Origin: a virus
IMG/VR virus record: IMGVR_UViG_3300032315_001657
Location: 11,109 to 75,108 of that record
Direction: 5' to 3' (one strand)
Length of the DNA stretch: 64,000 nucleotides
Part shown: piece after piece, positions 8,741-31,135 of the stretch
Layout: each line of letters begins with the position of its first letter
Numbering within the stretch: the stretch's first letter is position 1
The notes under the pieces: model-generated
Database searches by the model: none
Seen by the model: only the letters and a program-made list of their open reading frames with translations
What the model was told of the DNA's origin: nothing
Translations under genes and position numbers: made by a program

Positions 8741-8821
8741 TAATAATGTTTTATTACATACAAAACGAAAATAATAGAAAACCTCCCTTTACGGGCTGAG
8801 TTCTTGATTCGTTTTGTTTTG

Positions 8822-8854
8822 AGACCCGGCCCTAAAAAGCCGGGTTTTCTTTTT
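8822..8854 (+). terminator. Rho-independent terminator upstream of the tRNA array
   Basis: ACCCGGC-CCTAAAAA-GCCGGGT followed by TTTCTTTTT. Confidence 0.75.
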
Positions 8855-8888: not shown

Positions 8889-8970
8889 GGGTAGATCGCA
8901 TAGTGGCAATTGCCGGAGACTGTAAATCTCCTCTCATTAGAGTTCGTAGGTTCGAGTCCTACTCTACCCA
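8889..8970 (+). tRNA. tRNA-Tyr(GTA)
   Basis: GGAGA-CTGTAAA-TCTCC anticodon arm, long variable arm, GGGTAGA/TCTACCC acceptor. Confidence 0.95.
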
Positions 8971-8983
8971 TATTTTAATAATT

Positions 8984-9054
8984 TGGCTCGTAGTGTAATG
9001 GTAACACCAGAGAATTTGGATCTCTTAATCATAGTTCGAGTCTATGCGAGCCAG
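8984..9054 (+). tRNA. tRNA-Gln(TTG)
   Basis: TGGCTCG/CGAGCCA acceptor; AGAGA-ATTTGGA-TCTCT arm. Confidence 0.9.
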
Positions 9055-9061
9055 TTTTTAG

Positions 9062-9090
9062 TTGCACAATTTAAAAGATTCCGACATAAT
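9062..9090 (+). promoter_or_regulatory. Sigma70-type promoter
   Basis: TTGCAC-17 nt-CATAAT, ATG 7 nt downstream. Confidence 0.55.
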
Positions 9091-9097
9091 AACAACA

Positions 9098-9271
9098 ATG
9101 AAGCTTTTAAAGCAGCCCTGGGAAAAATATGGCATAACCGAAATGGCATATTTAATGGCTTACACACAGGGATACCAAGGGGCATTTAGATCTCCTGACA
9201 CCACCTATAAGCATGGTACAGTACTTAGAAAAATTTATAATAAAGGAAGAAGAGAGGCTAAACAATATTAA
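9098..9271 (+). CDS. Hypothetical protein
   Basis: ATG at 9098 right after a promoter (MKLLKQPWEK...). Confidence 0.55.
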   Translation: MKLLKQPWEKYGITEMAYLMAYTQGYQGAFRSPDTTYKHGTVLRKIYNKGRREAKQY

Positions 9272-9438
9272 TGAAATTAGACTTAGACATTTTATATGCT
9301 TTTGTACTCTGCATACTCATAGCTGTTTTTACAATTCAATCGCGAGAAATTAAAATTTTGCAAACTGAAATTAAAGAGCTTAGAATTATTGTTGATCAAA
9401 AATTCTTACCTCCAGTAAATACAGATAAAAATTTGTAA
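9271..9438 (+). CDS. Small single-TM/coiled-coil protein (55 aa)
   Basis: Manual translation MKLDLDILYAFVLCILIAVFTIQSREIKILQTEIKEL...; start overlaps the upstream stop. Confidence 0.5.
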   Translation: MKLDLDILYAFVLCILIAVFTIQSREIKILQTEIKELRIIVDQKFLPPVNTDKNL

Positions 9439-9478
9439 TATGGAAGACTTTGACGGTTTAGGAATTTAATGAATTCTA

Positions 9479-9569
9479 GCTGGGTTAGTGTAATTGGAAG
9501 CACCGACAGTCTTATAAACTGTGTGCCCTAGATGAGGGCCGAGCATGGGTTCAATTCCCATACCCAGCA
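9479..9569 (+). tRNA. tRNA-Ile(TAT) with a long variable arm
   Basis: GCTGGGT/ACCCAGC acceptor; ACAGT-CTTATAA-ACTGT arm; V-arm GCCCT-AGATG-AGGGC; ATGGG-TTCAATT-CCCAT T-arm. Confidence 0.85.
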
Positions 9570-9597
9570 TATTTTTTTTTTGATCTTTTACATTTTA

Positions 9598-9670
9598 GGG
9601 GTGGTAGCTCAATGGTTAGAGCAGTCGGCTCATAATCGATAGGTTGACGGTTCGAATCCGTCCCGCCCCA
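9598..9670 (+). tRNA. tRNA(CAT), most like Ile2 (lysidine type); elongator Met possible
   Basis: GTCGG-CTCATAA-TCGAT arm; paired G1-C72 and no three consecutive G-C pairs, so not an initiator. Confidence 0.85.
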
Positions 9671-9677
9671 CATTTTC

Positions 9678-9749
9678 GGAACGGTAACTCAATGGTAGAG
9701 TAGCGCCCTTTTAAGGCGTAAGTTCTGGGTTCGAGCCCCAGTCGTTCCA
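9678..9749 (+). tRNA. tRNA-Lys(TTT)
   Basis: GCGCC-CTTTTAA-GGCGT arm, canonical cloverleaf. Confidence 0.95.
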
Positions 9750-9768
9750 TATTAAATAGCTCTTTAAT

Positions 9769-9843
9769 ACCTAGGTAGCACAGCGGTAGTGCAGCGCACT
9801 GTTAATGCGCGGGTCGTTGGTTCGAATCCAACCCTAGGTGCCA
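9769..9843 (+). tRNA. tRNA-Asn(GTT)
   Basis: GCGCA-CTGTTAA-TGCGC arm; G73 plus CCA. Confidence 0.95.
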
Positions 9844-9851
9844 TTTTAAAA

Positions 9852-9923
9852 GTCTCGTTCGTTCAAGGGATAGGACCGAAAACTTCTAATTTTCTAATGT
9901 AGGTTCGAGTCCTACACGAGACA
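9852..9923 (+). tRNA. tRNA-Arg(TCT)
   Basis: GAAAA-CTTCTAA-TTTTC arm; GTCTCGT/ACGAGAC acceptor. Confidence 0.92.
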
Positions 9924-9944
9924 TACATTTAAATATACAATAAC

Positions 9945-10016
9945 GTCGCCATCGTCTAACGGTTAGGACACATGGTTTTCATCCATGTAATCGGGGTTCG
10001 ATTCTCCGTGGCGATG
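9945..10016 (+). tRNA. tRNA-Glu(TTC)
   Basis: CATGG-TTTTCAT-CCATG arm; GTCGCCA/TGGCGAT acceptor. Confidence 0.92.
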
Positions 10017-10070
10017 CTTTATATTTTTAGTTGCCGGTCTATTAATCCCCTCTATACTTTTCATAACTCT

Positions 10071-29806: not shown

Positions 29807-31135
29807 ATGGTGACAAAAGAAGAAATATTAAAACTTGTAGGCAGTTTTATAAGTGAAAAAAATGCAAATAAAAAATGGGAAGCAGGCAAAGACTGGGTTC
29901 AATATGCAGGTCCCTGTTTTGACGAACAGGAATATATTGCTTCAATAGAAACTCTACTAGATGGGTGGTTAGTTCTAGGTAAAAAGGGTATTAGTTTTGA
30001 AAATATTTTTCCAAAACACCTTAATAAAGATTATGGTATACTTACAAATAGTGGTAGTAGCTCTAATTTAATTATGATGTCTGCTTTAACATCAAAGAGA
30101 CTATACAACTTACAAAAAGGCACCAAGGTTATTACACCTATTGCAGGTTTTCCAACTACAATTAACCCTATTTTTCAATTAGGGTTTGAACCACTATTTG
30201 TTGATATAGATCTTGACACACTTAATCTAAATTTAGAACAGGTCGAATTACGTGCAAAAGAAGGAGCAAAGGTTATTACATTTGCTCATGTACTCGGTAA
30301 TCCTCCTAATATGGATGAATTAATGTGTATTATTGAAAAATATAATCTTATTTTACTTGAAGATTGTTGTGACGCGCTTGGATCTACATATGACGGAAAA
30401 CCGCTTGGCTCGTTCGGAGAATTTGCTAGCTGTTCCTTCTATCCAGCTCATCATATTACAATGGGAGAGGGTGGGTTTGTTGCCTGTAAGACCCACCAGC
30501 AAGAGATTATTGCACGTAGCTTTAGAGAATGGGGCCGCGGTTGTTATTGTATTGGAATGAAAGCTGGTCTACTTAAAAATGGTACTTGTGGAAATAGATT
30601 TGATAACTGGCTACCTTCATTACCAGATGAAATTTTTGATCACAAGTACGTATATGATGAAATAGGTTATAACCTGAAGCCTATTGAAGTGCAGGCAGCA
30701 ATGGGACTTGAGCAAATTAAAAAACTCCCTTATATTAATGAAAGACGTAATCACAATCATAAACGCTTGTGTGAAATATTTAGCAAATATGAAGAGTGCT
30801 TTATTATACCTAAAGCAACTGAAAAGAGTGACCCGAGTTGGTTTGCTTTTGCTGTAACTATTAAAGACGGTACTAATTTTAAGAGACGGGATATTATTAA
30901 TCATTTTGAAAGTAATAAAATTCAAACCCGTCCATACTTTGCTGGTAATATTATGCTGCAACCAGCATATGAGGGTTTAATGAATCAACAAGACGTTATT
31001 AAAAATTACCCTAATGCAAGAAAAGTAACTACTGATACCTTTTTTCTTGGAACAAGTCCGGTTATAACCGATGAGCAATTAGATTATATAGAAATAATAT
31101 TAAAAGATTTCTTTAAAGAAAACTCCCTATTATAA
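29807..31135 (+). CDS. rfbH: NDP-4-keto-6-deoxyglucose 3-dehydrase (RfbH/DdhC, E1)
   Basis: NSGSSSNL, EDCCDALG, SFYPAHHITMGEGG (His in place of the Schiff-base Lys), WGRGCYC...TC Fe-S motif, DHKY. Confidence 0.92.
   Translation: MVTKEEILKLVGSFISEKNANKKWEAGKDWVQYAGPCFDEQEYIASIETLLDGWLVLGKKGISFENIFPKHLNKDYGILTNSGSSSNLIMMSALTSKRLYNLQKGTKVITPIAGFPTTINPIFQLGFEPLFVDIDLDTLNLNLEQVELRAKEGAKVITFAHVLGNPPNMDELMCIIEKYNLILLEDCCDALGSTYDGKPLGSFGEFASCSFYPAHHITMGEGGFVACKTHQQEIIARSFREWGRGCYCIGMKAGLLKNGTCGNRFDNWLPSLPDEIFDHKYVYDEIGYNLKPIEVQAAMGLEQIKKLPYINERRNHNHKRLCEIFSKYEECFIIPKATEKSDPSWFAFAVTIKDGTNFKRRDIINHFESNKIQTRPYFAGNIMLQPAYEGLMNQQDVIKNYPNARKVTTDTFFLGTSPVITDEQLDYIEIILKDFFKENSLL

Follow-up and report, generated by a model that had tools for sequence, protein, structure and literature searches.

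A phage tRNA with a UAU anticodon and a second, GAU-bearing arm: a probable isoleucine-inserting decoder of AUA

To our knowledge, AUA is the sole sense codon that nearly all bacteria read by way of an essential base modification, the lysidine made by TilS. The tRNA concerned is tRNA-Ile2(CAU), in which TilS converts C34; phages carry copies of it as well (e.g. T4 tRNA-Ile), which provide AUA decoding for AT-rich phages where AUA is rare in the host. A tRNA gene of an uncultured phage raises the question of whether AUA can also be read in another way. It has a UAU anticodon on a body with a long variable arm. An initial annotation of this locus proposed either an AUA decoder that is independent of TilS or resistant to nucleases, or a tRNA charged with another amino acid, such as leucine. 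What does ATA code for in this phage, how widespread is such a tRNA, and what is the extra arm?

The stretch of DNA analyzed, referred to here as the window, comprises 64,000 nucleotides, bases 11109–75108 of a 75,108-bp IMG/VR record that is ~35% complete by CheckV and has a G+C content of ~34%. Its gene content is that of a distant T4-like myovirus, with a T4-type large terminase, tail sheath, DnaB-type helicase, RecA-like protein and primase, and a family B DNA polymerase having no more than 33% identity to the polymerases of cyanophages and Methylophilales phages. A QueE-like enzyme and a sugar-modification cassette are also encoded. No TilS, IleRS or class I synthetase domain was found in the 75-kb fragment, which represents a record only ~35% complete.

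ARAGORN identified nine tRNA genes in the window; the whole record has 24, in two arrays. The upstream array, outside the window, includes a tRNA-Ile(GAT). This gene and a tRNA-Gly(TCC) (G000:C1:8234-8304 and 9103-9173) have an unusual T loop, GGGGCAGTACC, and were found by Infernal only. A tRNA with an ACT anticodon and an 8-bp acceptor stem in the same array (G000:C1:8737-8825) was called as tRNA-Ser. The array within the window (Table 1) is preceded by a 17-codon open reading frame and then by a terminator-like hairpin with a T run. The codons of this leader include TAT/TAC, ATA, CAA, AAC/AAT, GAA, AGA and AAA, so that no tRNA of the array lacks a cognate codon in it; all seven codon sets are covered by about 0.4% of the phage's 16-codon stretches. 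A related phage contig, L008, has a similar leader, MFNYIQNEYRK..., in which ATA is again included.

Table 1. Position and make-up of the features discussed; positions are those of the window.
Feature	Position	Strand	Composition	Basis
Leader ORF	8746..8799	+	17 codons, MFYYIQNENNRKPPFTG	
Terminator-like hairpin	8821..8848		hairpin with T run	
tRNA array	8889..10017	+	Tyr(GTA), Gln(TTG), tRNA(UAU), Met-type(CAT), Lys(TTT), Asn(GTT), Arg(TCT), Glu(TTC)	ARAGORN; order kept in relatives
tRNA(UAU), whole gene	9479..9569	+	91 nt, 7/5 cloverleaf, A73 at 9569, CCA not encoded	ARAGORN, Rfam RF00005, fold
Acceptor stem			GCTGGGT/ACCCAGC, 7 bp	
D arm and linker	9488..9505	+	GTGT / AATTGGAA / GCAC, then 2-nt CG linker	
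Decoding arm	9506..9522	+	stem ACAGT/ACTGT, loop CTTATAA; U33, A37, A38; anticodon TAT at 9513-9515	
GT dinucleotide			between decoding arm and second hairpin	
Second hairpin ('variable arm')	9525..9539	+	GCCC, 7-nt loop TAGATGA, GGGC; GAT at 9531-9533	
Unpaired tail	9540..9544	+	CGAGC, 5 nt, from second hairpin to T stem; class I variable-loop length	
T arm and 3' acceptor strand	9545..9568	+	ATGGG / TTCAATT / CCCAT	
CAT tRNA	9598..9671		directly after tRNA(UAU)	
CDP-6-deoxy-hexulose 3-dehydrase gene	29807..31135			

The UAU gene, called as tRNA(tat) by ARAGORN, scores 51.6 bits (E = 4e-9) against the Rfam tRNA model RF00005, well above the gathering score of 29 for that family; in the alignment, the variable region carries a long insertion and a single extra base follows position 26. 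A cloverleaf with an extra hairpin is also the minimum-energy fold (−33.2 kcal/mol, z = −2.7; RNAfold). The features listed in the initial annotation, i.e., a length of 91 nt, the TAT anticodon, a GCCCT/AGGGC stem, an extra base between the D and anticodon arms, and A73, are all present. The extra base makes the linker between the D arm and the anticodon stem one base longer than usual. The 5-bp stem, closing a loop AGATG, is an alternative reading of the second hairpin. Promoter and terminator sites around the gene were no more numerous than in shuffled sequence.

The D region has the same length as that of the phage's own tRNA-Leu(TAG), and most of the bases are alike. The D loop, AATTGGAA, is of the Leu type (A14, and G18 G19 after three bases), and A73 is present too; these are resemblances only, because IleRS substrates share both features. 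C4-G69, U12-A23 and C29-G41 are minor determinants for E. coli IleRS, and A37/t6A37 is a strong one (review, PMC9976931). The body of the window tRNA has G4-C69, G12-C23 and A29-U41 in place of the minor set, while its GAU arm has a C-G at the pair equivalent to 29-41. When the acceptor, D and T parts were compared with those of 789 class I tRNAs by nearest neighbor, the best matches were tRNAs for Trp, Gly and Glu, with CAT and GAT tRNAs only mildly enriched, so that the comparison pointed to no one source of the body.

The meaning of ATA can be read from the genes of the phage and its relatives. AUA decoding is in strong demand, with ATA accounting for 525 of 22,230 codons (23.6 per 1000), along with 981 ATT and 201 ATC. 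Its use per gene ranges from 0 to 58 per 1000 and declines as the G+C content of the gene rises (r = -0.67), being low (0–8 per 1000) in the polymerase, the RecA-like gene and several structural genes, and high (45–58 per 1000) in AT-rich accessory genes. Aligned codon pairs were counted in orthologues shared by the phage genome and nine related contigs. ATA was found opposite ATT 317 times, ATC 66, GTA 66, GTT 35, TTA 28, CTT 20 and CTA 14. Among the 659 non-identical partners of ATA, 58.1% were Ile codons (ATT or ATC), 19.1% Val and 10.6% Leu, as compared to 51.7% Ile (ATA included), 25.7% Val and 9.8% Leu for the partners of ATT. This profile matches those of ATT and ATC and differs from those of Leu codons; for TTA, CTA and CTT, 66–79% of non-identical partners were themselves Leu codons.

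A second test used the phage gene for CDP-6-deoxy-hexulose 3-dehydrase, for which 119 homologues with 76–96% identity were aligned. Eleven of its 12 ATA codons lie in columns with an Ile majority, six of these columns having Ile in at least 115 of the 119 sequences; none of the 12 lies in a Leu-majority column, and the TTA and CTA codons of the gene fall in Leu columns. The conserved ATA positions, which had been singled out in the initial annotation as informative, do align with isoleucine. The cognate codon of the tRNA has this meaning in its own genome, and, as judged from the alignments, the two tests show that ATA stands for Ile in this phage clade. Leucine inserted at ATA throughout the proteome would not be the regime under which these genes evolved, and the option of another amino acid, such as leucine, finds no support in the comparison of ATA partners with those of ATT and the Leu codons. 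This evidence bears on the meaning of ATA and not on which tRNA reads it, since host tRNA-Ile2 alone could decode ATA.

Relatives of the phage were found with the ATPase gene adjoining the array as the query: nine contigs with 58–90% protein identity, seven of which cover the slot that follows tRNA-Tyr and tRNA-Gln. All seven have a tRNA(tat) there. In L001, L005 and L007 it is 98–99% identical to the window tRNA. In L004, L008 and L009 it is a two-armed tRNA of 93–95 nt, 62–75% identical, with G1-U72, A73, an encoded CCA, and an extra loop AGACG or CGACG that contains GAC, not GAU; ATA is Ile-like in L004 and L008. The slot in L002 is occupied by a plain 72-nt class I tRNA(tat) with the full E. 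coli-type Ile set (C4-G69, U12-A23, C29-G41 and A73). The array as a whole is a mosaic among the relatives, and what the slot keeps is, on these comparisons, the UAU anticodon and not one given body. The tRNA(TTG) that precedes the UAU tRNA in L001 (6289-6375) and L007 (8821-8906) is 86–87 nt long, with a Leu-like D arm, GAATTGGTAG, a short extra hairpin and G73; the tRNA-Gln (TTG) of the window itself is ordinary and has 73 nt. A body of the window type, with two compensatory changes in acceptor pairs, is also present together with two other tRNAs in L164 (JBIPLL010000600.1, 3.9 kb), which was binned with a Beijerinckiaceae MAG from Lake Mendota. This contig is probably mis-binned phage DNA, and it hints at a freshwater origin for the phage clade.

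More distant members were sought in IMG/VR with a pattern consisting of a UAU loop with two flanking pairs, 18–36 free bases and a T loop; the variable region was unconstrained, and the pattern itself fixed C32 and the two pairs next to the anticodon loop. At least 120 stretches were retrieved, of which at least 100, representing at least 66 unique sequences, were confirmed by ARAGORN as class II tRNA(tat). Of the 66 unique members listed, 58 carry GAT in the extra hairpin's loop; the other long-arm tRNAs of these loci (Ser, Leu, Tyr and others) do so in 2 of 143 cases. Among the 55 unique cores listed, all have A73, 35 have G1-U72, and 53 have the decoding loop CTTATAA or CTTATAC, whose C32 was fixed by the pattern. 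A 7-nt loop of the YAGAUNA type on a stem of 3–5 bp was seen in 47 of these 55 listed cores, in 27 of them as CAGATTA. Counting from the loop, 41 of these 47 listed arms have C-G as the third pair, their second pair covaries (GC 28, CG 7, AT 7, TA 5), and a tail of 5 or 6 nt always follows the hairpin. Across the unique members listed, the median tail is 5 nt, vs. 1–3 nt in the Leu, Ser and Tyr tRNAs of the same loci. Most of the members listed have a 4-nt D loop unlike that of tRNA-Leu.

In an alignment of 33 diverse members from the UAU arm onward, pairing is seen in 98.8% of the cells of the three helices, and both bases vary in 11 of 13 pairs. The covariation score, to which the two pattern-fixed pairs beside the anticodon loop also belong, was reached by none of 500 shuffles. 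The window tRNA gene is not a chance match, because its slot is kept in relatives and the helices covary. It has all the traits of the family: the CTTATAA loop (Y-U-UAU-A-M), A73, the GCCC/TAGATGA/GGGC hairpin with C-G as third pair, and the 5-nt tail. The comparisons show the second arm and its GAU motif to be conserved and, at the level of sequence, specific to UAU tRNAs with A73. The family would accordingly be described as a widespread phage tRNA with two anticodon-like arms, its 'variable arm' being, on this evidence, a second hairpin that displays GAU. The class II body of the Leu/Ser/Tyr type assumed in the initial annotation has to be given up, since Leu, Ser and Tyr tRNAs encoded on the same contigs have neither the conserved GAU loop nor the 5-nt tail. 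The full-text literature searched yielded no account of a phage tRNA-Ile(UAU) with a long arm or two arms.

The family is not uniform. A subfamily has Val-type triplets in the extra loop (CUAACAA, CUGACAA, UGGACGA; L024:4399-4487, L052:7063-7151, L163:1198-1287, L136 and L146). One of these contigs, L163, is 15 kb long, was binned with a Ruminococcus MAG, and carries 18 tRNAs and a CCA-adding enzyme; its arm loop CUGACAA is a perfect Val type. The gene for the CCA-adding enzyme uses ATA 15 times and ATT once, with nine of the 15 ATA codons in Ile-majority columns and one in a Val-majority column. Reading of AUA as Val in phages with a GAC arm was considered and is rejected for L004, L008 and L163 on the alignment of ATA with Ile. 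Members of the commonest subfamily are present in two cultured Synechococcus phages, S-SRM01 (MW015081.1, 32944-33031) and S-SKS1 (HQ633071.1, 178515-178593; host WH7803); no close copies of the window-type tRNA were found in cultured phages. In some contigs class I and two-armed UAU tRNAs occur side by side. Short extra hairpins, mostly with GAAA-type tetraloops, were also noted on phage tRNAs for Asn, Asp, Lys, Cys, Arg and Glu (L033, L040, L044, L067, L070, L110 and others), indicating that long variable regions in phages are not limited to Leu, Ser and Tyr.

With respect to neighboring genes, a CAT tRNA is the commonest immediate downstream neighbor among the matches listed (42 of 100 cases; 9 of 41 distinct acceptor families); CAT tRNAs make up 9.7% of all tRNAs in the family loci listed. 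When the ORFs of 99 loci were clustered, no protein family was found to be shared next to the tRNA across diverse loci, and the top clusters spanning several families had no relevant Pfam domain.

The same pattern was searched for in 596 Gb of bacterial and archaeal genomes, where it retrieved 86 stretches, 47 of them tRNA(tat). Those from bacterial genomes with a GAU loop have A73 in 10 of 11 cases, and lie for the most part in phage-like contigs with several tRNAs. G73 marks the largest of the groups that lack the GAU loop (n = 19, of which 18 are singletons); many of its members come from Acidobacteria and Planctomycetes, and it matches the Ser-type, allo-tRNA-like genes of Mukai et al. (PMC5389517).

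The findings are best explained if the window tRNA is an Ile-inserting AUA decoder belonging to a widespread, unpublished family of two-armed phage tRNAs, which we consider probable. It would be a working phage tRNA that reads AUA as Ile through a UAU anticodon without an unmodified C, and would therefore not depend on lysidine synthesis by TilS; decoding capacity would thereby be supplied for the AT-rich genes of the phage. The UAU arm, with its loop CUUAUAA, U33 and A37, would decode, and the other arm would present GAU in a YAGAUNA loop on a short, G+C-rich stem, followed by the tail of 5–6 nt. Charging would be carried out by the IleRS of the host. Also in favor is the leader ORF, in which ATA accompanies codons for all the other tRNAs of the array. 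Of the first option in the initial annotation, the part concerning a UAU decoder with no need for TilS fits well, as ATA is heavily used and Ile-like and no TilS was seen in the ~35%-complete record; its alternative, resistance to nucleases, would be a further, conjectural trait.

Two observations on E. coli bear on this explanation. Its IleRS charges the lysidine form about 360-fold better than a tRNA with a UAU anticodon, and on E. coli ribosomes an unmodified UAU anticodon misreads AUG (PMC3575796). Such misreading would count against an Ile-inserting UAU tRNA unless it is somehow avoided, and so does the difference of the body from the minor determinant set of E. coli IleRS. The CAT neighbor may be an elongator tRNA-Met or a tRNA-Ile2; if it is tRNA-Met, the extra copy could compete against misreading of AUG by the UAU tRNA.

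Poor charging by IleRS leads to the foremost, though tentative, candidate role for the second arm: it may be an identity module, a copy of the anticodon arm of tRNA-Ile1 by which host IleRS, poor on UAU, would still charge the tRNA with Ile. During charging, the GAU arm may replace the UAU arm in the stack below the D stem. This would be a refinement of the AUA-decoder explanation and not exclusive of it. Stated fully, the second arm would be a transplanted Ile identity element that copies the anticodon arm of tRNA-Ile(GAU) as a decoy and permits charging by any host IleRS without TilS, a proposal that is attractive but for the present doubtful. The specificity of the GAU loop for this family among the matches listed and the presence of A73 in all cores listed are in keeping with it, as is a tail of class I variable-loop length. 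With the phage tRNA-Ile(GAT) loop CTGATAA the GAU loop shares five of seven positions, namely the equivalents of C/U32, G34, A35, U36 and A38. The third stem pair corresponds to the E. coli IleRS determinant C29-G41, and among the matches listed it stays C-G while the neighboring pair covaries. A C-G pair at this position is seen in 87% of GAU arms, in 24% (11/46) of the family's own UAU arms but in 6/9 class I phage tRNA(UAU), in 9/21 phage tRNA-Ile(GAT), and in 13% of other tRNAs.

Other observations fit poorly with a strict form of this proposal. The same slot has the Val-type triplet GAC in L004, L008 and L009, or a plain class I tRNA(UAU) in L002, yet ATA stays Ile-like in L004 and L008; likewise the Val-type arm of L163 is accompanied by ATA codons found mostly in Ile columns. 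Class I and two-armed UAU tRNAs coexist in some contigs. Within the arm, loop positions 33 (A) and 37 (mostly U) are unlike those of a true anticodon loop, and the missing A37 is a strong determinant for E. coli IleRS (PMC9976931). An arm projecting from the tRNA core would presumably reach the anticodon-binding domain only if the helices restack.

It is rather unlikely that the second arm, or the whole RNA, serves a purpose other than charging, as a handle for modification of U34, a decoy or shield against a host tRNA nuclease, an RNase E-type processing site, or a structural brace. The loop sequence is conserved, yet GAC and AAC variants exist, which argues against pure mimicry of an anticodon; AG/AUU fits the RNase E-type motif RN/WUU. 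The minimal 4-nt D loop of many members may need compensation, and the GAAA-capped hairpins on phage tRNAs of several isotypes indicate that arms are tolerated. Against such roles, no protein family recurs beside the tRNA across diverse loci among the 99 clustered, and the motif goes together with the UAU anticodon and A73, an association suggestive of Ile-specific biology.

Charging by LeuRS, with Leu placed at AUA as recoding or as deliberate mistranslation, is highly improbable. The bacterial enzyme ignores the anticodon (PMC9976931), A73 is present, and the D region matches that of the phage tRNA-Leu(TAG) in length and most bases, so that some charging by LeuRS is conceivable. ATA is nonetheless exchanged with Leu codons at about the rate seen for ATT, and none of the 3-dehydrase columns with ATA has a Leu majority; most family members have a D loop unlike that of tRNA-Leu, and neither the loop motif nor the tail length of the extra arm is that of Leu arms. 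Recoding of AUA to Leu is rejected on the codon evidence from orthologue partners and 3-dehydrase columns.

That the tRNA is a missense or regulatory allo-tRNA, a Ser-type long-arm tRNA with a non-Ser anticodon, is scarcely credible even though UAU is the commonest anticodon among the 8/4 allo-tRNAs (PMC5389517) and long-arm tRNA(tat) singletons with G73 occur in genomes of Acidobacteria and Planctomycetes, for the window tRNA is 7/5 and not 8/4 or 9/3, the bacterial GAU loop goes with A73 where the largest loop-less group has G73, ATA behaves as Ile, and membership is rejected on the 7-bp acceptor, the 5-bp T stem, and A73 in place of G73 or U73.

A common phage tRNA that bypasses lysidine by means of a UAU anticodon and a conserved GAU arm would add a structurally new class to the elongator tRNAs. 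Provided that the arm takes part in charging, recognition of the anticodon would have been shifted away from the decoding loop in a natural tRNA, and, should the arm prove to be an Ile identity element, this would be the first natural tRNA to divide decoding and synthetase recognition between two anticodon-like arms. These points are relevant to tRNA identity, to the takeover of translation by phages, and to the design of orthogonal tRNAs. They also concern annotation: the members in S-SRM01 and S-SKS1 lack a GenBank annotation, and gene finders class the others as unusual class II tRNAs, a labeling that encourages mistaken claims of recoding.

Compared to known systems, the two-armed tRNA would serve the same supply of AUA decoding as tRNA-Ile2(CAU), with U34 and a different architecture. 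It is most like the class I tRNA-Ile(UAU) of Mycoplasma mobile, lactic acid bacteria, Bifidobacterium and Neorickettsia in having UAU, A37, A38 and A73, with AUA read as Ile and no lysidine (PMC3575796; PMC9976931). Those tRNAs have an ordinary variable loop of 4–5 nt and are served by an adapted IleRS (Arg865 in M. mobile), whereas the window tRNA has a second, GAU hairpin and is phage-encoded, and so must use whichever IleRS the host has. With the 8/4 allo-tRNA(UAU) of Acidobacteria and relatives it shares a long extra arm and a UAU anticodon, and is like them not Leu, Ser or Tyr by anticodon (Mukai et al., 2017; PMC5389517). The allo-tRNAs are 8/4 or 9/3, have G73 or U73 and insert Ser or Ala; the window tRNA is 7/5, with A73, a GAU loop and a codon that means Ile. 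The bacterial class II tRNAs for Leu, Ser and Tyr likewise have five helices, one of them a hairpin placed between anticodon arm and T arm, and tRNA-Leu has a similar D arm; the window tRNA differs from them in its UAU anticodon, the YAGAUNA-type loop of the arm, the 3' tail of 5–6 nt vs. 1–3 nt, and a codon that means Ile. In function the tRNA is like the TilS-independent class I tRNA-Ile(UAU); in architecture it lies outside class I tRNA-Ile(UAU), the class II tRNAs for Leu, Ser and Tyr, and the allo-tRNAs.
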